This document shows, piece after piece, positions 1,918 to 52,846 of a stretch of DNA of 64,000 bases. Origin of the DNA: Candidatus Saccharibacteria bacterium UBA6824. GTDB lineage: Bacteria; Patescibacteriota; Saccharimonadia; Saccharimonadales; UBA10212. The stretch spans positions 70,675-134,674 of the forward strand of contig DKEK01000005.1 in NCBI GenBank assembly GCA_002452155.1, in the 5' to 3' direction. Every line of letters begins with the position of its first letter. The stretch's first letter is position 1. A model generated the notes under the pieces. That model saw only the letters and a program-made list of their open reading frames with translations. It was not told the origin of the DNA and did not search any database. The position numbers were made by a program, and so were the translations under genes.

Positions 1918-3546
1918 TTGAATAAAATCGCGCATTATTTGCAGGGACATATCGCCGGAGAAGTTACTTCTAACCCGGATGCTAGGCGGTACTTTGCGCA
2001 TGATGCCAGTATCTTAGAAATAGTTCCAACGGCTATTGTTTACCCGCGTAATGAAAACGACGTCCGCAAAAGTATTCGTTTCGCCTGGCAGCTCGCTGGA
2101 CGTGGTAGAAAACTACCTATCACGCCGCGCGGTATGGGTAGCGGCACCTCGGGTTCCGCGATCGGTAGCGGTATTGTTTTGGTTTTCCCGGCCCACATGA
2201 ATAAAGTTGTCTCACTGGATACCAAGAAGCGCACAATGTCTGCCCAACCGGGCGCCAACTTTGGGGCGCTTTTGCAAATGCTCCAAACTCACGGCCTGTT
2301 TTTGCCGCCTTATCCTGCGTCAAAAGATTACGCGACCATCGGCGGCGCTGTGGCTAATAATGCCATTGGCGAAAAATCGGTCAAATATGGGGCCATGGCC
2401 GATTTTGTTCAAAGTCTGCGGGTAGTGCTGAGCAATGGCGAGCTTATTGAAACCGGCCCCTTGAGCCAAAAAGAACTCAGCCACAAGATGGGGTTGCAGA
2501 CTTTGGAGGGCGAAATTTATCGCTTGATTGACGCCCTACTTGAAGAAAATGCCCACCTTTTGCCGGTTGGCCGGGAGCGCCTTAAAGCCCGCTTTAGCAG
2601 CATCGGCTATAACATCTTTGACGTCAAAAAAAATGGTCAGTTCGATTTAACACCTTTATTTACCGGTTCATTGGGTACATTGGGGGTCATTACGGAAGTC
2701 ACGTTTAGGGTTGCTCCGCACCACCCGCGCACCACCCAAATGCTGGTCAGCCTGGAAGAACTTGAGGACTTAGGCGATATCCTACCGAGTCTTTTGGACC
2801 TCAAGCCAAGTATGGCCGATATGCTCAGCCGCGCAGCCGTCCAACAAATCCTGGAGCTTAACCCTAATCAATTGTCTGACTTATCAATGCCTCATGAGGC
2901 TTTCATGCACTTGTTTATTGAGTTTGACGACTCGAAAGAGGCCGATAGAAAGAAAAAAGTAAAACATCTGCAAAAAATTGTCGATGGGCTTGGTGCATGG
3001 TCAGAAGTTTATGAAGATTTGCAGAGCCAGGAGCGCCTACGCAAACTGAGTGGCAGCGTAGCAATACTTCTCCAGCCGCAGGGCCCAGCTGTAGCCACGC
3101 CAATAGCCGAAGATATCTCTGTCCCGGTGGACAAGCTGGCCGACTTTCTGAAGAAAATCCAGCTGGTCTACCGCGAGGTTGGCCTGCCTCCCGCCCTCTG
3201 GGGTCAAGCCGGTATCGGCGTAGTACGGATGTGGCCGGCGCTGGATCTGGGACAAACCGGTGACCGCCAGAAACTGTTTAAGATCCAGGGTAGCCTGTAC
3301 GCCGCGGCTGTGCGCCATGGCGGCAGCATTAGCGCATCAGCCGGGGACGGCCGGGTCCGGGCCCCTTATAGCCCCATGGTCTACGGCCCGGAGGTTCATG
3401 CTCTAATGCTGAGCGTCAAAAAGATATTCGACCCGCGAGGGATTTTAAATCCTGGTGTAAAGACCGCTTCAACAGAAGAAATAAAAGTTCTAATGCGAAG
3501 TAGTTATAGTTTGTCCAATTTTTACGACTATCTGCCCCGAAGTTAA
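1918..3546 (+). CDS. FAD-linked oxidase (GlcD / D-lactate dehydrogenase-like, PCMH-type FAD-binding domain)
   Basis: 542-aa ORF with TTG start. The N-terminal FAD-binding region (PRGMGSGTSGSAIG) and C-terminal FAD-oxidase domain ending ...KKIFDPRGILNPG are typical of the GlcD family. Confidence 0.75.
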   Translation: MNKIAHYLQGHIAGEVTSNPDARRYFAHDASILEIVPTAIVYPRNENDVRKSIRFAWQLAGRGRKLPITPRGMGSGTSGSAIGSGIVLVFPAHMNKVVSLDTKKRTMSAQPGANFGALLQMLQTHGLFLPPYPASKDYATIGGAVANNAIGEKSVKYGAMADFVQSLRVVLSNGELIETGPLSQKELSHKMGLQTLEGEIYRLIDALLEENAHLLPVGRERLKARFSSIGYNIFDVKKNGQFDLTPLFTGSLGTLGVITEVTFRVAPHHPRTTQMLVSLEELEDLGDILPSLLDLKPSMADMLSRAAVQQILELNPNQLSDLSMPHEAFMHLFIEFDDSKEADRKKKVKHLQKIVDGLGAWSEVYEDLQSQERLRKLSGSVAILLQPQGPAVATPIAEDISVPVDKLADFLKKIQLVYREVGLPPALWGQAGIGVVRMWPALDLGQTGDRQKLFKIQGSLYAAAVRHGGSISASAGDGRVRAPYSPMVYGPEVHALMLSVKKIFDPRGILNPGVKTASTEEIKVLMRSSYSLSNFYDYLPRS

Positions 3547-3764: not shown

Positions 3765-3848
3765 CGTCAGAATTCTTTACGACCAAACATCAAAAAGGCG
3801 CAATCAAGTGGTGCCTTTTTTGTTTGGTCTAGCATGATTCTTCCTTTT

Positions 3849-3876
3849 CCGTTTTACGTAGCTCCCCGTAAAACGG
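3849..3876. repeat. conserved hairpin CCGTTTTACG-N8-CGTAAAACGG (copy 1 of 2)
   Basis: 10-bp stem. The ~35-nt context CCTTTTCCGTTTTACGTAGCTCCCCGTAAAACGGGTTA is nearly identical to 13920..13955. Both copies lie about 85 nt downstream of a tRNA whose 3' end reads CCCACCACGTC. Confidence 0.8.
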
Positions 3877-3976
3877 GTTAGCCACAGGGCTCAAGTTGCA
3901 TTCAAAGATTGCATAATTTATAAATAAACGTTATCGTAAGGATACTAAACATAAGCGGTGGGTAGAGGGGATATTT

Positions 3977-4277: not shown

Positions 4278-4354
4278 GCGGGTGTAGCTCAGTTGTTTAG
4301 AGCGCGTCCTTGCCAAGGACGAGGCCAGGGGTTAGAGTCCCCTCACCCGCACCA
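4278..4354 (+). tRNA. tRNA-Gly(GCC)
   Basis: Acceptor stem GCGGGTG/CACCCGC, anticodon stem CGTCC/GGACG with loop TTGCCAA, encoded CCA. A perfect 16-bp palindrome GTCCGCCTAGGCGGAC (4259..4274) precedes it. Confidence 0.9.
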
Positions 4355-4435
4355 TCCTACTTCGCGTAAAGCTTCGTAGGATTTGTGCGAAGTAGGATGC
4401 CCTCCATAGCCTTTTGGCGACGGAGGGCTTATTGT

Positions 4436-4681
4436 ATGACTATGTTTTACGTATATCTACTTAGGAGTCTTAATTATAACCAGACTTATGTCGGTTTCTC
4501 GAGAGACGTCCAAATAAGATTAAATCACCACAACGAAGGAAAAAGTCCGCATACAAGCAAATACAAACCCTGGAAACTGGTAACGTATTTTGGTTTTGAA
4601 TCTGAATCAAGAGCAAGGGAATTTGAGAAGTACCTAAAAACAGGATCGGGCATTGCTTTTGCCAGAAGACATCTTTTTTAG
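4436..4681 (+). CDS. GIY-YIG (COG2827/YhbQ-like URI-domain) nuclease
   Basis: Translation is M(T)MFYVYLLRSLNYNQTYVGFSRDVQIRLNHHNEGKSPHTSKYKPWKLVTYFGFESESRAREFEKYLKTGSGIAFARRHLF, a canonical small GIY-YIG layout. The track ORF starts at 4385; ATG 4436 or 4442 is the more likely start. Confidence 0.75.
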   Translation: MTMFYVYLLRSLNYNQTYVGFSRDVQIRLNHHNEGKSPHTSKYKPWKLVTYFGFESESRAREFEKYLKTGSGIAFARRHLF

Positions 4682-4718
4682 TTCCACCTGCCCGCCGAAG
4701 CTTTAGCGTAGGGTGGGT

Positions 4719-4740
4719 CACCCGCACCAAGCATAAGTAT
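4719..4740 (+). repeat. att-like junction: second copy of tRNA-Gly 3' end (TCACCCGCACCA) overlapping left copy of 17-bp direct repeat GCACCAAGCATAAGTAT
   Basis: TCACCCGCACCA at 4719..4730 repeats 4343..4354, the tRNA-Gly 3' end. GCACCAAGCATAAGTAT at 4724..4740 is repeated exactly at 6309..6325. Confidence 0.85.
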
Positions 4741-4806
4741 TATGACCTCTGTTTATTCAGGGGTTTTTTATTTAGGTATATACTGAGATTAAGGTTAATA
4801 GACACA

Positions 4807-6186
4807 ATGAGCAACAAACGACCTCTGCTAAAAGCCTTGAGGCAGACCATGATTCAAGATGTACCGGCTTACGCCAACAAGTTTTTCTACTCCCTTGGAT
4901 TTCTGTCGATGACTTGTTTTATGATTCTGCTCGTGACGGGAGTCGTAATGGCGGGTTTCGGTCCCGATTGGTGGCTGACTAGCGGGATTGGCAGATACTT
5001 TCGCAGTGTCCATCTTTGGGCCACCCAAGCTTTTGTACTGTTTATTATTCTGCATCTTCTGATTGTATTTTTGACTTCCGGCTTTAAAAAACCGCGGCGT
5101 TTGACTTGGGTAATAGGTGCCATAATGTTCTTCTTCGTGATAGCCGAAGCCGAGTTTGGTTATGTACTGCGGGGCGATTTTTCCGGCCAATGGCGCTCTC
5201 TACAAGGAGCCGATTTCTATAACGGTACTGGCATCGGCGCCTGGATTAACAATATTAACTACCGACAGATTTATGGCATTCATGTTGTAGCAATTCCGAT
5301 TATCCTGCTGGGGCTGCTGTTTTTACACTACTTACGAATACGTATCTTGGGCATTGCCGAGCCCTACCGGAAAGACGTTCATGTGCCGACAGTTAGGGCA
5401 AACCACAAGGCGCTGTTTGTCCGGGGTGGTGTACTAATAGGACTAATCTTAGCCTTGTCTGTTTTATTGCCATCACCATTTTTGGAACCTAACACCGCTA
5501 AACAAGTCGCCGCCAGCGACCCTAAACTGGTAGGCCAAACTCTCATAAAAGAATTTGACCGCTCTTCCGACACCGCGGGGTATCTCGATAGTATTGACCC
5601 CTATAAATATGATACAAGGAGTATTTATGTAGAGCAGCCATATGCTCAGTTGTCTAGCCTGTTACATACGCCAAACTTGCTGCAAAAATATAATTCTGAG
5701 CCGCAGGCTTTGCAGGACTCTCAACTGAAAGCTGCCCAAGACTACTTTGATAATGCCTACCCGGCCAAAGCCGATGCTAACAACCCGCTTGAGCCAGTCG
5801 TAATATCTTTGATAAACATGGCTTCAGCCGGGCTGTACCAGCCGGCGCTTAACTCGGCTAGCCCGTCGGGCGACCAAACGACCTACGGCCTGCGTTTTTT
5901 GGCCGACACCGGTGTCATGGATGACCGGGCGCAAGCTCTAGGCATTACCACCGACCAATATGGTATGCTGCGCGAAGAAAAGGGGCGTATTCCCCCCGGT
6001 GCTTGGTGGCTAGCGCCAATCGGCCTGCTTAATCATACCGTACTGGCTCATGACGATAACGGTGACCGAGACGGTGCCATAATCATGGGGTTATTCTTAC
6101 TGTTACTTATTGCATTCCCTTACATACCAGGCTTAAACCGACTGCCCGAGTGGCTGAAGGTCTCCAAACTAATTTGGCGTGTATAG
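4807..6186 (+). CDS. di-haem cytochrome b N-terminal-domain protein fused to an unknown ~200-aa domain and a C-terminal TM helix
   Basis: 459 aa. The cytochrome b/b6 N-terminal pattern is present: FYSLGFLS..., helix B HLWATQAFVLFIILH (H-x13-H), helix D HVVAIPIILLGLLFLH (H-x14-H), and WVIGAIMFF...GYVL between them. No Rieske or cytochrome c partner gene is adjacent. Confidence 0.7.
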   Translation: MSNKRPLLKALRQTMIQDVPAYANKFFYSLGFLSMTCFMILLVTGVVMAGFGPDWWLTSGIGRYFRSVHLWATQAFVLFIILHLLIVFLTSGFKKPRRLTWVIGAIMFFFVIAEAEFGYVLRGDFSGQWRSLQGADFYNGTGIGAWINNINYRQIYGIHVVAIPIILLGLLFLHYLRIRILGIAEPYRKDVHVPTVRANHKALFVRGGVLIGLILALSVLLPSPFLEPNTAKQVAASDPKLVGQTLIKEFDRSSDTAGYLDSIDPYKYDTRSIYVEQPYAQLSSLLHTPNLLQKYNSEPQALQDSQLKAAQDYFDNAYPAKADANNPLEPVVISLINMASAGLYQPALNSASPSGDQTTYGLRFLADTGVMDDRAQALGITTDQYGMLREEKGRIPPGAWWLAPIGLLNHTVLAHDDNGDRDGAIIMGLFLLLLIAFPYIPGLNRLPEWLKVSKLIWRV

Positions 6187-6308
6187 TTTCTTACGTGTAA
6201 CTCCCAGCTCTCACTTGGTTAGTAGATACTCCTGATACGGCACTTCCAATATCTTCCTCCACCTCACCATCTCATCCCCAATCAGGTGTAATGATCTTCC
6301 TACTTACT

Positions 6309-6325
6309 GCACCAAGCATAAGTAT
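6309..6325 (+). repeat. right copy of 17-bp direct repeat GCACCAAGCATAAGTAT
   Basis: Exact match to 4724..4740. The two copies bracket only the cytochrome b-like gene. Confidence 0.85.
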
Positions 6326-6338
6326 AATAAGACAGCGT

Positions 6339-6869
6339 TCAAACTGTACGATATTTAATGGTTTTCGTAACTTCCGGATCGACTACATACGTATGGCTCT
6401 TAAAGGTACGGATTGTGAACACATATACCCAGATCAGGCCGTAAAGCAGGCCTAGCACAACTCCAGTGTCAATAATACCCCTCCATGGTTGAGGTAAATA
6501 ACGGACTATTACAACTATCAGAGCAATGCCTACCGTTAAAGACCAACTAGTAATCATACGTTTTCGGGTTGTATGGAAATAACCTATGCAATATAGCGGA
6601 GCTAAAATTAAGTCAATTGGACGACCATGATTAACTAGGTGCCAAGTACGCGCAGCGACACGAGGTGAAAATAGTTTCTGAAAGCCCCGGTAGCCCTCAG
6701 CTACGACCATGAACACACACCAAAGTATCAATACTATCCATTCGAGCGGGGATAACCTTACTTTAAAAGCATCAAAAACGTGAGGCAAAACACGCGCAGT
6801 CGCACTGCCTAGAATGAGCGTAACACCTAAAATACCCCATATCGCGCCAAAGATGTGCGCCACCTTCAA
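6339..6869 (-). CDS. polytopic membrane protein, unknown function
   Basis: 176-aa ORF with about 5 hydrophobic helices. It lies 17 nt downstream of the acidic-protein gene on the same strand. I recognise no motif. Confidence 0.55.
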   Translation of the reverse strand: MKVAHIFGAIWGILGVTLILGSATARVLPHVFDAFKVRLSPLEWIVLILWCVFMVVAEGYRGFQKLFSPRVAARTWHLVNHGRPIDLILAPLYCIGYFHTTRKRMITSWSLTVGIALIVVIVRYLPQPWRGIIDTGVVLGLLYGLIWVYVFTIRTFKSHTYVVDPEVTKTIKYRTV

Positions 6870-8792: not shown

Positions 8793-8989
8793 TGTTTACT
8801 TTTCCCTTAATGTTTTAATTATGACAGAAAAAAGGCCAGTGCATAATTACTAAAGCAAGTTGTGTAAATCCCAGCTCTTATCTAGACAACAAATACCCCC
8901 GTTAAAAGCAAAAACCCGAGCCTGTGGCCTATATTGACACCACCGAGCTCTAGGCATAAGCTAAAAACACTATTAAATAAAGGAAAAAT

Positions 8990-13840: not shown

Positions 13841-13925
13841 CGTCGCAACTAATATCAACCCCTCTAGAAATTTGTGCAAGCAAGTTGCACAAATTTAGCG
13901 GGGTTTTGTATTGCTGCTCCTTTTT

Positions 13926-13951
13926 CGTTTTACGGAGCTCCCCGTAAAACG
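13926..13951. repeat. conserved hairpin CGTTTTACGG-N6-CCGTAAAACG (copy 2 of 2)
   Basis: 10-bp stem. The context CCTTTTTCGTTTTACGGAGCTCCCCGTAAAACGGGTAA matches 3843..3879. Confidence 0.8.
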
Positions 13952-13963
13952 GGTAAAAAGGCT

Positions 13964-48137: not shown

Positions 48138-48749
48138 TTGAAGGCATTAAAAAAAATTAATCGATCAATGCTGATGATAGCTGGTGGTGTGCTTTTGGGC
48201 GCTCTGCTTGTTCTAGGCGTCCGTTTTTTTACTTATCATCCCGAGCATACCCACTACCACGCTAATTTTACAGTTTATATAAATGGCCAGCGCGAGCAAT
48301 TCGCTGACCCTGCATTATATGAGGAGTCAGGAGCCTCATGTACGCAGGAAGAGCAAATGACACCGCAAGAACGGGCCCACATGCACGACAATGTCAACGA
48401 CGTTGTCCACGTCCACGATCATGCGGTTGCTTGGGGCCAGTTTTTCCTCAACCTTGGCTGGCTGGTTGACGCTAAAGTTATCGAAACGCAAGACCAGATG
48501 CTGCTGGCCGATGCCGGTCATAAAATAACCTTCATTCTTAACGGTGAAACTATAGATAATGTTAGCAACCGCGTAATTGGCGACCAGGATAAACTACTAG
48601 TCGATTACGGCGGCTCAAACCAAGTCGCTATGACTGAATACGCCGGTATTACCAACAAAGCCCAAAAATACGATACTAGTACCGATCCTAAATCGTGCGG
48701 TGGTTCAGCGCCCACCACGATCCACGACCGACTAACTCACCTCTTTTAG
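48138..48749 (+). CDS. membrane-anchored His-rich protein, unknown function
   Basis: N-terminal TM, then HPEHTHYHANFTVYINGQ...HMHDNVNDVVHVHDH. Confidence 0.55.
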   Translation: MKALKKINRSMLMIAGGVLLGALLVLGVRFFTYHPEHTHYHANFTVYINGQREQFADPALYEESGASCTQEEQMTPQERAHMHDNVNDVVHVHDHAVAWGQFFLNLGWLVDAKVIETQDQMLLADAGHKITFILNGETIDNVSNRVIGDQDKLLVDYGGSNQVAMTEYAGITNKAQKYDTSTDPKSCGGSAPTTIHDRLTHLF

Positions 48750-51199: not shown

Positions 51200-51799
51200 A
51201 TGCACAATTTGCTAGACCCCAGCCACTTGGTGAAAGATTTTGGCTACTTGGGCATATTTATTACGCTGTTTTTGGAATCGGGCGTCTTTTTTGGCTTTTT
51301 CCTGCCGGGCGACAGCCTGCTTTTTAGCGCCGGGCTGCTGGCTTCGCAGGGCCTCTTAAATATCTTTGGGCTGGTGGTTATCAGCGTAGCGGCAGCAATC
51401 CTGGGTAACAATGTTGGTTATTACACCGGCAACAAAGCCGGGCCAGGACTATTCAATAAGCAAAAATCTTTCTTATTCTCGCCAAAACGGATAACCGAAG
51501 CCCACAATTTTTTTGAGAAGCAGGGCCCGCAGTCACTTATCTTGGCCCGTTTCATTCCGGCGGTCCGCACCTTTGTGCCGATTGCCGCTGGCATTGGCAA
51601 AATGAACTACCGCAAGTTTTTGGTTTTCAATGGCCTAGGCGGTCTACTCTGGGGCATTGGGGTGCCAATCCTCGGCTATACACTCGGTAAAAAGGTTCCC
51701 AGTATCGACAAATATTTACTGCCTATCATCTTCGTAATAATTATTCTATCCGCCGTGCCGGTGTTGTTTGCCTACTTCAAAAGCCGCCGCCGTAACTAG
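51200..51799 (+). CDS. DedA-family membrane protein (second copy)
   Basis: LPGDSLLFSAGLLA...ILARFIPAVRTFVPIAAGIGKM. Confidence 0.85.
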   Translation: MHNLLDPSHLVKDFGYLGIFITLFLESGVFFGFFLPGDSLLFSAGLLASQGLLNIFGLVVISVAAAILGNNVGYYTGNKAGPGLFNKQKSFLFSPKRITEAHNFFEKQGPQSLILARFIPAVRTFVPIAAGIGKMNYRKFLVFNGLGGLLWGIGVPILGYTLGKKVPSIDKYLLPIIFVIIILSAVPVLFAYFKSRRRN

Positions 51800-52410
51800 A
51801 TTAGACGGTGGATGATGTTAATGGTCGCTGCTCCAGCCGCTACCACAATTGCCACGCCAGCTATACCCGTTATATAGCCAAGTAAAAATACCCGAACGTC
51901 CTCTAGAATTACCGACAGGCAAAGCAAAACTACGCCCAGCGCCGGCAGAGTATCCAAGCCCGAAAACGGCGGAGCCAGAAAGGAAGCCGCAGTAAATACG
52001 ATTATTACCAGCGCGTTTAACCGCGTAAATAACGACAGCTGAAAAATCCGATTAAACTTCTGGCTTGAGTGTTTTTCAAACCAACGGATCCGGCGCAGTA
52101 TCATTGGGATAGCCCGACGTTCGATAACGCCAGCCAACTTCATTTGCTTCCAGCGCTTAGGTAGCCAAATTGTTTTAAGGCCTAATAACACCTCCAGTGC
52201 TAAAAGCACAGTGATGATTTCGAATATGTGCGTGATCCCGCCGGTCGGCAACGGTAGCGACGGTATAAACATCAGCAGAAGTATGGTGATGGCAAAGCTT
52301 TTTTCACCAAAGACTTCATCCAAAGAAGTTAGGGTTTTTGGCTTTTTACTCTTAAGCCACGCTTCCAGCTTGTGGCTAAAAAAGTAACTTTGCTCTACCT
52401 CATTTTTCAT
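51796..52410 (-). CDS. ExoD-family (exopolysaccharide synthesis) membrane protein
   Basis: GEKSFAITILLLMFIPSLPLPTGGITHIFEIITVLLA is the ExoD N-terminal signature. About 4 TM helices. Confidence 0.7.
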   Translation of the reverse strand: MKNEVEQSYFFSHKLEAWLKSKKPKTLTSLDEVFGEKSFAITILLLMFIPSLPLPTGGITHIFEIITVLLALEVLLGLKTIWLPKRWKQMKLAGVIERRAIPMILRRIRWFEKHSSQKFNRIFQLSLFTRLNALVIIVFTAASFLAPPFSGLDTLPALGVVLLCLSVILEDVRVFLLGYITGIAGVAIVVAAGAATINIIHRLI

Positions 52411-52460: not shown

Positions 52461-52846
52461 TGGTGGAGCTGGTGGGAATTGCGCCCACGTCCGATGGTTT
52501 AATTAACTAGCGCTCTACAGGTTTAGGCCACTTAATATTGTTCGGAAACGAAGACCGCTAAATGGCCAAAAAGTCTCGTTCCCTAGTCCAAAATCTTAAC
52601 AAATCTCTAGGACACTGAGATTTGGGCAACCAGATGATATGACACACTGTAGACTCTATCTGATATCGAGCCGAGCATGGCTTACGAAATTAAGCGTAAG
52701 CTGGTGCGAAAACCGGCATGCTGAACATGCTAGCCATTCGCGAAACAAAAGATTTTACATCTATTGTGGTTGCACCGGATAACGTTCAGTGCAATCCGAC
52801 CTGCAAGCTAGTTGTTAAAGTCCACCGTCAAGCTGAAATCAGCCCC
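52461..52846 (-). ncRNA. ssrA: tmRNA (SsrA)
   Basis: The 5' end GGGGCTGATTTCAGC... pairs with the 3' end ...GGACGTGGGCGCAATTCCCACCAGCTCCACCA. That gives a tRNA-Ala-like acceptor with a G3:U pair, a T arm and CCA. An internal open frame ends ...MPVFAPAYA-TAA (stop at 52690..52692). Length 386 nt. Confidence 0.88.

Follow-up and report, generated by a model that had tools for sequence, protein, structure and literature searches.

How does a gene for a cytochrome b-like protein come to lie between two identical repeats derived from a tRNA 3′ end, with no recombinase beside it? The locus that raises this question belongs to Candidatus Saccharibacteria bacterium UBA6824, a member of the Saccharimonadales (TM7), and was analysed within a 64,000-nucleotide (nt) stretch of contig DKEK01000005.1, called the window here; all positions are those of the window unless another contig is named. 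A first inspection of the letters alone (the sequence-only reading) had described exact 17-bp direct repeats that enclose just this gene (cytb hereafter) at the 3′ end of tRNA-Gly, in tandem with an insertion carrying a GIY-YIG open reading frame (ORF). The answer we favour, at a probability of roughly one half, is that a Campbell-type integration took place at the tRNA-Gly 3′ end and that the unit is the decayed islet, devoid of an integrase, that remained of it, comparable to the cis-mobilizable elements (CIMEs) and standing beside the GIY-YIG insertion.

The repeat and the tRNA-Gly end

The 17-mer GCACCAAGCATAAGTAT is present in two exact copies (Table 1), and the sole real gene between them is cytb, as had been described. 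It is not a common repeat of the region: a third copy was found on neither strand of the window, even with up to 2 mismatches permitted. The chance expectation for two copies is 0.01, and none of 100 shuffled sequences yielded two. Alignment of the copies widens to 19 of 20 nt, beyond which a faint resemblance is left (TATGAC on the left side, AATAAGAC on the right), and the right copy may extend weakly to about 6333. Independent JGI and ENA samples yield seven contigs with 100% identity over the repeat-bounded arrangement, which is therefore real, not an assembly artefact, and fixed in the population.

The origin of the repeat can be read from the tRNA-Gly genes of three other Saccharimonadales (L063, L040 and L038), in which the trailer starts directly after the CCA end. 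In L063 the gene ends in ...CCGCACCA and is followed by AGCATAAGCGT. In L040 the corresponding sequences are ...CGCACCA and AGCTTAAGCGTTTTGACCTCTGCAAACGGAGGTCTTTTT, with AGCTTAAGCGT as the trailer segment matching the repeat; in L038 they are ...GCACCA and ACCATAAGTACTTTGACCTCAG, with ACCATAAGTAC as the matching segment. By this comparison, the 17-mer is made up of the last 6 nt of tRNA-Gly(gcc) followed by the first 11 nt of its native trailer. Identity at 17 of 17 positions, including the terminal GCACCA, points to common descent from the tRNA end and not to convergence, and the heptamer GCATAAG is unchanged in the window, in L063 and in two further relatives, L008 and L009. The tRNA-derived, attachment-site (att)-like character proposed for the repeat is thus borne out by the trailers of relatives. 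So is the proposal that the left repeat starts inside a duplicated tRNA end: a 12-nt copy of the tRNA-Gly 3′ end overlaps it, the final 6 nt of this copy being the first 6 nt of the left 17-mer.

Which of the two copies is the native one is indicated by what follows them. Past the repeat, the relatives' trailers read T(T/A)TGACCTCTG... and run into a terminator hairpin, as does the DNA 3′ of the left copy. The window segment with this hairpin is homologous to the L040 and L038 trailers and also to a hairpin 3′ of the transfer-messenger RNA (tmRNA, ssrA) gene of another relative, L020; the hairpin is the terminator belonging to tRNA-Gly. Since trailer and hairpin of the relatives match the left side, it is the left copy that stands in native flank; the right one is a truncated duplicate. 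The idea, drawn from L020, that the hairpin before the gene is a relic of an ssrA terminator was superseded by the tRNA-Gly trailers of L040, L038 and L063; the L020 hairpin still resembles that of the window despite the tRNA-Gly identity of the latter.

The sequence-only reading had deduced an empty site made of tRNA-Gly, AGCATAAGTAT and AATAAG. Its first 11 nt are those found in the relatives, and its last six bases are not, the relatives reading T(T/A)TGACCTCTG... at that place. A tRNA-Gly directly followed by AGCATAAG..., with no cytochrome gene downstream, is present in L063 and L040; the L038 contig stops ~135 nt past tRNA-Gly and gives trailer information only. All three relatives are distant, with a flavin adenine dinucleotide (FAD) oxidase encoded upstream that is at most 66% identical to that of the window (45% in L038 and L040). 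The nearest genome available is L063 (GCA_016176605.1; FAD oxidase 66%, SBP_bac_5 80%, UvrC 75%), and it retains the outer synteny (ligase, M48, LemA, S11, FAD oxidase ... SBP_bac_5, UvrC). Its interval from FAD oxidase to SBP_bac_5 measures 4.0 kb, versus 10.4 kb in the window, and contains the same seven tRNAs in a different order; no homolog of cytb, of the neighbouring operon of 176-, 529- and 103-aa genes or of the 183-aa gene was found in it. On contigs anchored on the upstream FAD oxidase, the ancestral order of the cluster reads Leu(cag), FAD oxidase, Leu(gag), Val, Phe, Gly ... Cys, Leu(taa), the genes between the tRNAs being variable.

Segment A and the circular permutation

Between the gene and the right repeat copy, the window carries a short tail and a non-coding segment, A. 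L008 and L009 encode cytb proteins 94% identical to that of the window (about 87% at the nucleotide level) and share the same parts. L009 has the window's order: a remnant of the tRNA-Gly end, trailer, hairpin, promoter, gene, tail, a shorter A and GCACTA. The left end is a degenerate tRNA-Gly 3′ end, TAGAGTCTCTTAATCCGCAC, matching at 16 of 20 nt in the same register, which 0 of 1000 shuffles reach. Past GCACTA comes a truncated alpha/beta-hydrolase-like frame, recognized by eye and without a Pfam match. L008 reads ExoD (minus strand), A, GTACCG, trailer, hairpin, promoter, gene, tail and VIT1 (plus strand), a context spanning 2.9 kb from ExoD to VIT1. Segment A therefore lies 3′ of the gene in the window and L009, and 5′ of the block formed by repeat, terminator, promoter and gene in L008.

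A synthetic junction made from window positions 6195-6325 and 4741-4850 aligned colinearly with L008 (77% over 195 nt, with one 46-nt indel), and the joint from A to the repeat core falls at the identical nucleotide in the window, L008 and L009. The order core-gene-tail-A-core of the window and L009 and the order A-core-gene-tail of L008 are circular permutations of each other. Neither a deletion nor an inversion can interconvert them, so that a circular intermediate or a tandem duplication is required. The shared joint, together with the fact that A does not derive from a tRNA, fits a segment that behaves as element DNA at an att joint.

Several other identities were considered for A. As a relic of tRNA-Gly or tmRNA it gave alignment z-scores of at most 1.5, and no z above 3 against four tmRNA genes; as a tRNA it had no Rfam match even at E up to 10. 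Neither A nor the repeat matched a known RNA in Rfam, and their fold z-scores were near 0 (-0.5 to +1.7 for A against shuffled sequence). An insertion of A after TTAC in the manner of the IS200/IS605 insertion sequences (IS) was dropped, the expected right-end and flank matches being absent. Segment A starts with the motif GTGTAAMTCCCAGCTCT, and its first ~40 nt recur between the divergent 103-aa and 183-aa genes. About 55 nt after this second copy, GGCATAAGCT (about 8955-8965) forms the -10 region of the promoter of the 183-aa gene and is conserved in L057, a relative that shares the 176-aa gene. Homology to L057 at the latter gene covers the stop codon and ~9-10 nt, ending a few nt short of the right repeat.

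Table 1. Positions of the features at the tRNA-Gly locus and of the second copy of the start of segment A
Feature	Position	Strand	Basis or remark
tRNA-Gly(gcc), functional, ending ...TCACCCGCACCA	4278..4354	+	ARAGORN; Rfam tRNA, 70.8 bits
GIY-YIG insertion	4355..4717	+	flanked by the tRNA-Gly CCA end and its 12-nt copy
Two hairpins in the GIY-YIG insertion	4353-4399, 4408-4429		inverted repeat; one terminator-like
GIY-YIG ORF, 81 aa	4436-4681	+	Pfam GIY-YIG, 5.7e-16
12-nt exact copy of the tRNA-Gly 3′ end, TCACCCGCACCA	4718..4729	+	sequence match
Left 17-bp copy	4724..4740	+	GCACCA (tRNA-Gly 3′ end, 6 nt) and 11 nt of native trailer, AGCATAAGTAT
Remainder of the native tRNA-Gly trailer: intrinsic-terminator hairpin (4744-4765) and T-run	4741..4773	+	terminator scan
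cytb leader with promoter-like box GGTATATACT	4775..4806	+	
Cytochrome b-like gene, 459 aa	4807..6186	+	Pfam PF13631 Cytochrom_B_N_2 and PF00033 Cytochrome_B
Tail TTTCTTAC, then G	6187..6195	+	end of L008 homology 3′ of the gene
Segment A, 113 nt, non-coding	6196..6308	+	precedes the right copy
Right 17-bp copy	6309..6325	+	shortened duplicate of tRNA-Gly 3′ end and trailer
Native DNA 3′ of the 176-aa membrane-protein gene (6339-6869, convergent)	6326..6338	-	L057 comparison
Second copy of the first ~40 nt of A, GTGTAAATCCCAGCTCT...	8861..8900	+	1 mismatch in 16 nt

A proposed decayed islet and its rivals

From the repeat and the permutation we infer a circular intermediate, a crossover that was either site-specific or homologous, and an order of events. 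The starting point would be tRNA-Gly with its trailer AGCATAAG... and terminator hairpin. A circle carrying a core similar to the tRNA-Gly end and trailer, then terminator, promoter, cytb, tail and A, would have recombined with tRNA-Gly and its trailer. Such a crossover would duplicate the core, leaving a native-type flank to the left of the gene and, to the right, A and a second copy of tRNA end and trailer. Its agent may have been an integrase specific for tRNA or tmRNA ends, acting in trans or since lost, or else homologous recombination across ~60 nt of shared tRNA end, trailer and terminator. Later, the right copy would have been cut to about 17-25 nt by the rearrangement that brought the operon of the 176-aa gene alongside, and afterwards the GIY-YIG segment would have entered at the CCA end of the tRNA, duplicating its last 12 nt. 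The recombinase would have been lost as a larger element decayed, or would act in trans. L008, with its run from ExoD through A, core and gene to VIT1, may be such a larger parent, the window unit arising from it by one internal deletion; a single deletion of this kind would explain the junction between tail and A.

Measured against known classes, the unit shares with integrative islands its location at a tRNA 3′ end and direct repeats containing an RNA-gene 3′ end; an integrase of its own and a foreign base composition or k-mer usage are missing. An IS or transposon is not indicated: no transposase was found, the ends have only GTAA/TTAC in common, and a 17-bp duplication of tRNA end and trailer would be atypical as a target-site duplication. 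The attL/attR-like label given to the repeats holds insofar as they derive from a tRNA; it does not distinguish site-specific integration from a homologous Campbell event or from tandem duplication followed by loss.

A number of observations weigh against an integrated islet. The cassette and the scanned window ORFs of at least 150 aa yielded no integrase, resolvase or transposase, in agreement with the earlier description of an insert without recombinase. Neither an empty site nor a circle was found within the species, nor any polymorphism, the seven contigs being identical; phage records, plasmid records and IMG/VR gave no copy, and there was no second one. The word cassette, used in the sequence-only reading, suggests a free mobile unit, which these results do not support. 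Foreign composition is ruled out: only 6 of the 23 sixty-nt lines of the gene have a GC content of 43% or less, which does not bear out the 38-43% reported from sampled lines, and cytb stands at 48.8% GC, the window at 50.7%. Ranked among windows of equal size, the 1568-nt interval bounded by the repeats falls at the 15th percentile in GC and the 82nd in tetranucleotide distance, an ordinary composition. The terminator expected 3′ of the right copy is absent in both the window and L009. The right end of L009, with 6 repeated nt only, abuts the truncated hydrolase gene, an illegitimate junction, and the A-core-gene run of L008 can equally well be taken for an attR joint to which the gene is the native neighbour. 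Finally, cytb is strongly conserved throughout the lineage with a smooth gradient of identity, which is atypical of accessory cargo. If the unit is an islet, it is fixed by now and probably immobile.

The rival that survives best dispenses with a mobile cassette. Here cytb would be a native neighbour of tRNA-Gly and the joint between A and core the right att joint of another element; a tandem duplication of A, core, terminator, gene and tail, excision of the element and partial loss of the second copy would then give the window's arrangement. The left flank, which is wholly native tRNA-Gly trailer and terminator, suits this account, as do the native composition and the conservation of cytb across the order. 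L008 would naturally read as element end, core, native flank and gene. The right copy is truncated and its region is rearranged (the three-gene operon is inverted relative to L057, and the tRNA order differs from L063), and circular permutation is as much the signature of a tandem duplication as of a circle. Three events are needed, however, against one or two with a circle; homologous loss of a redundant copy normally takes the whole unit and does not leave a stub of A and core; and a static native gene does not predict a position that keeps shifting beside tRNA and tmRNA ends. We regard it as rather unlikely, though the strongest of the rivals.

Repair of nuclease cuts offers another source of tRNA-end duplications. 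SegB of phage T4, a free-standing GIY-YIG homing endonuclease, lies within a tRNA gene cluster and cuts there. Likewise, a GIY-YIG nuclease might cut tRNA genes in the window, with repair through ectopic copying or end joining duplicating their ends and capturing neighbouring DNA, the cytochrome module included. Both GIY-YIG ORFs of the window adjoin tRNA genes and are flanked by tRNA fragments, as this would have it. The intact 81-aa protein is only a catalytic domain, however, and GIY-YIG enzymes leave 2-nt overhangs, which do not fit a duplication of 17 nt. The 12-nt and 17-nt duplications differ, moreover, in their left boundary, and the short L008 and L009 contigs, which have the same A-core joints, gave no sign of a GIY-YIG gene. 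Capture by repair is therefore improbable as the origin of the cytochrome unit.

Still less can be said for the 17-mer as a functional cis-element that happens to be present in two places, be it an operator, a processing signal or the -10 region of a promoter, an explanation to which we give very little credence. The invariance of GCATAAG in the window, L008, L009 and L063 could be so explained; a similar sequence, GCATAAGCT, is the -10 region of the 183-aa gene promoter in the window and L057, and in another relative, L059, the copies of a different repeat each lie upstream of a promoter. By eye, however, neither copy of the 17-mer has a usable -35, and the promoter scan gives no site at either; the left copy precedes a terminator, the right one faces the 3′ end of a convergent gene, and the 17/17 identity that includes the GCACCA of the tRNA points to descent. 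A chance match or an assembly artefact can be dismissed given the shuffles (0/100), the seven contigs at 100% and the homologous junctions in L008 and L009.

Cargo, neighbouring insertions and known systems

Preferring the decayed islet, we turn to what it carries. The promoter box upstream of cytb is kept in relatives of 80-94% identity whose other flanks differ. The protein has a b6-type four-helix N-terminal domain, its best match among solved structures being cytochrome b6 (1.5e-17, residues 18-186), and a conserved, lineage-specific C-terminal part of ~270 aa. The predicted four-helix domain contains the two histidine pairs expected to bind two b haems, H69/H83 (H-x13-H) and H159/H174 (H-x14-H), unchanged in 15 homologs of 62-86% identity. 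More than 600 homologs were found, with identity falling smoothly from 94% to ~60%, and all those with a named source are Saccharimonadales. NCBIfam scores are far under every equivalog cut-off, so that the protein is not a canonical PetB or QcrB, and no Rieske protein, subunit IV or C-terminal cytochrome b partner was found at the locus or among the window Pfam matches shown. The histidines, the conserved C-terminus, the low NCBIfam scores and the lack of a partner nearby together lead us to a predicted functional, lineage-specific dihaem b-type cytochrome that is not a canonical bc or b6f subunit.

Two further observations concern this gene in relatives. In L011, L012, L014, L015 and L022 (71-82% identity), a perfect or near-perfect palindrome of the CRP/FNR type, TGTGA-N6-TCACA, was recognized by eye 5′ of the promoter box; it is lacking in the window, L008 and L009, where the tRNA-Gly terminator fills that position. 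In L020 (83% identity), cytb appears by our own reading to be split at ~1201-2400 by the insertion of an IS200/IS605-type TnpA element, with the motif ...KYHLVWIPKYRKRIL....

The neighbourhood of cytb differs in essentially every relative examined. The gene begins 83 nt after the tmRNA gene in L020, with a terminator-promoter block homologous to that of the window; in L022 and L003, too, its place is downstream of the tmRNA gene, and in L001 its end and the tRNA-Asn 3′ end are 77 nt apart. The tmRNA region of the window itself carries no cytb, though syntenic with that of L003 (G5, RrnaAD, MarR, tmRNA ... trehalase, MetRS, TatD). Identity of cytb exceeds that of the flanks: flanking proteins of L003 are 35-66% identical to those of the window and cytb 80%, and in the L001 genome the FAD oxidase is 60% and cytb 86% identical, which fits either strong constraint or horizontal exchange. 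In the same vein, the best relatives reach 94% for cytb and 86% for the 176-aa gene, against at most 66% for the FAD oxidase (1918-3546) among 5.8 billion proteins (56% or less among GTDB representatives). This suggests that the filling of the tRNA cluster is more widely shared than the flanking backbone, or that the two evolve at different rates.

Distal direct repeats of the tmRNA 3′ end were not found beyond cytb in L020, L022 or L003. L022 has a 14-nt copy of the tmRNA 3′ end, CCGGCAGCTCCACC, at its positions 2187-2200, 115 nt past the tmRNA gene and before cytb. Among 17 other cytb loci no flanking repeat was significant, except for an unrelated one in L059: a 36-nt imperfect direct repeat (28/36; 582-617 and 2057-2092 of that contig; 0/200 shuffles) surrounds a cytb of 84% identity. 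Each of its copies lies just upstream of a promoter, and the downstream operon (DUF4342, cupredoxin, DoxX) hints at a functional tie to electron transfer. In the window, the tmRNA gene (52461-52846, minus strand; Rfam 104 bits, not called by ARAGORN) is directly followed by an ExoD gene (51796-52410), whose product is 52.6% identical to the ExoD that abuts segment A in L008.

Beside the islet, the GIY-YIG insertion separates the tRNA-Gly CCA end from the 12-nt copy of that end, which is the old tRNA-Gly end pushed away by the insertion; the local alignment score of this copy was equalled in 2 of 1000 shuffles. The segment is not present 3′ of tRNA-Gly in L063, L040 or L038, and its 81-aa protein is a bare catalytic domain without a DNA-binding domain. 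The tandem array proposed at first sight is supported in that the GIY-YIG segment is a separate insertion with a duplication of its own: the tRNA-Gly site holds two nested duplications, one of 12 nt (GIY-YIG) and one of 17 nt (cytochrome).

A comparable arrangement is found on the minus strand at 1358-1840. There, a complete tRNA-Leu(cag) (1420-1506) and a degraded GIY-YIG ORF (~1544-1750, 36% identity to the intact copy) lie between fragments of an older tRNA-Leu (5′ fragment 1817-1840, GGGCGAATGGCGGAATTGGTAGAC; 3′ fragment 1358-1373, CCTCTTTCGCCCACCA) whose acceptor halves (GGGCGAA, TTCGCCC) are complementary to each other. The older 5′ fragment is followed by a GC-rich hairpin with a perfect 19-bp stem (~1780-1822). 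It looks as though a module of GIY-YIG and tRNA replaced the middle of a resident tRNA-Leu gene.

Other tRNA ends were recorded as well. At 48703-48717, TCAGCGCCCACCACG is a 15-nt exact copy of the tRNA-Val(tac) 3′ end plus 2 nt of trailer, 35 kb from tRNA-Val; it falls within the 3′-terminal part of a 203-aa ORF, where the DNA separating tmRNA from trehalase is variable, at an estimated chance expectation of ~1e-4. The trailers of tRNA-Leu(taa) and tRNA-Val (3765-3880 and 13841-13955) have a common CGTC, differing terminator hairpins and then the ~40-nt palindromic motif TTTTCCGTTTTACGNAGCTCCCCGTAAAACGGGT, which is a repeated element following tRNAs. In L057, which has no A-like motif, the 103/529/176-aa operon stands in the opposite orientation and directly follows an unidentified tRNA 3′ end (positions 1-30, ...GTCCCGAAGCCA, then ATAATAA). 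A similar ...TCTAGCAAGCCA, followed by TAAGCT, comes after the operon at ~2806-2825; the pair, too short for statistics, may be another tRNA-end repeat around a small module. From the tRNA-end fragments found elsewhere in the genome it follows that tRNA ends are recombination hot spots here.

Among described systems the CIMEs come closest in definition. They have kept att sites and lost integration genes, accrete in tandem at att sites in tRNA genes, and arise by decay of integrative and conjugative (ICE) or integrative and mobilizable (IME) elements, being mobilizable when a related element integrates alongside (PMC5704250); CIMEs and accretion at tRNA genes are both at home in the ICE and IME literature (PMC5704250, PMC6323972). 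The window unit likewise has attL/attR-like repeats of a tRNA 3′ end, lacks integration and transfer genes, stands in tandem with another insertion and is plausibly the decayed remnant of a larger element. Unlike a CIME, it measures 1.6 kb and carries one gene, its cargo is conserved lineage-wide and native in composition, its repeat is mostly trailer (11 of 17 nt), and no cognate ICE, IME or integrase was identified for it; mobilization in cis is putative.

The tandem ssrA islands of Dehalococcoides have 20-bp direct repeats, taken from the 3′ end of ssrA, at their boundaries, and some lack integration genes and may be fixed (PMC3146451). They share with the window unit a repeat of an RNA-gene 3′ end at the distal boundary and a hot spot with several adjacent insertions, and cytb of several relatives lies just 3′ of ssrA. 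The window unit differs from them in its much smaller size, in the lack of a dsiB-like serine integrase or other module, and in the lack of presence/absence variation between strains of its species. Integron cassettes resemble it as single promoter-proximal genes without a recombinase of their own, in view of the circular permutation between genomes and of a ~40-nt end motif (the start of A) at two places in the locus. It departs from them in having no IntI or attI, its own promoter and a tRNA-derived boundary, and segment A shows neither an attC-like imperfect palindrome nor a stable fold. The likeness to T4 SegB concerns the GIY-YIG gene, not the cytochrome unit: it too lies among tRNA genes with tRNA duplications at the borders. 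It differs in its 81 aa, its bare catalytic domain of the YhbQ/UPF0213 type and its chromosomal, not phage, location, and a nuclease role is putative.

A broader proposal, which we advance as speculation and consider quite unlikely, would have recombinase-less modules of 1-3 genes with their own promoters shuttle between tRNA and tmRNA 3′ ends in Saccharimonadales, in analogy to integrons. Sites would include tRNA-Gly (window), ssrA (L020, L022, L003) and another tRNA (L057); recombination would take place at the CCA end or trailer by a host recombinase or by GIY-YIG nucleases in trans, and the start of A would mark the ends. Support for such general tRNA-anchored cassette traffic is circumstantial.

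What the locus may mean is best stated for the islet itself. The mechanism is not new, and the rearrangement is of a known kind and not visibly active now. We know of no characterised CIME-like elements in bacteria of the candidate phyla radiation (CPR). If the islet is what we take it to be, att-flanked islets and tandem accretion at tRNA genes would be documented in a reduced CPR genome, with accretion moving a conserved respiratory-type gene and not the usual accessory cargo. In practice, the locus yields clean junction sequences (tRNA end, trailer and A) with which reads and other genomes can be searched. The proposed integration would also account for the changing neighbourhood of cytb in almost every Saccharimonadales genome examined, and the 3′ ends of tRNA and tmRNA genes would then be main sites of gene-order change in these genomes.

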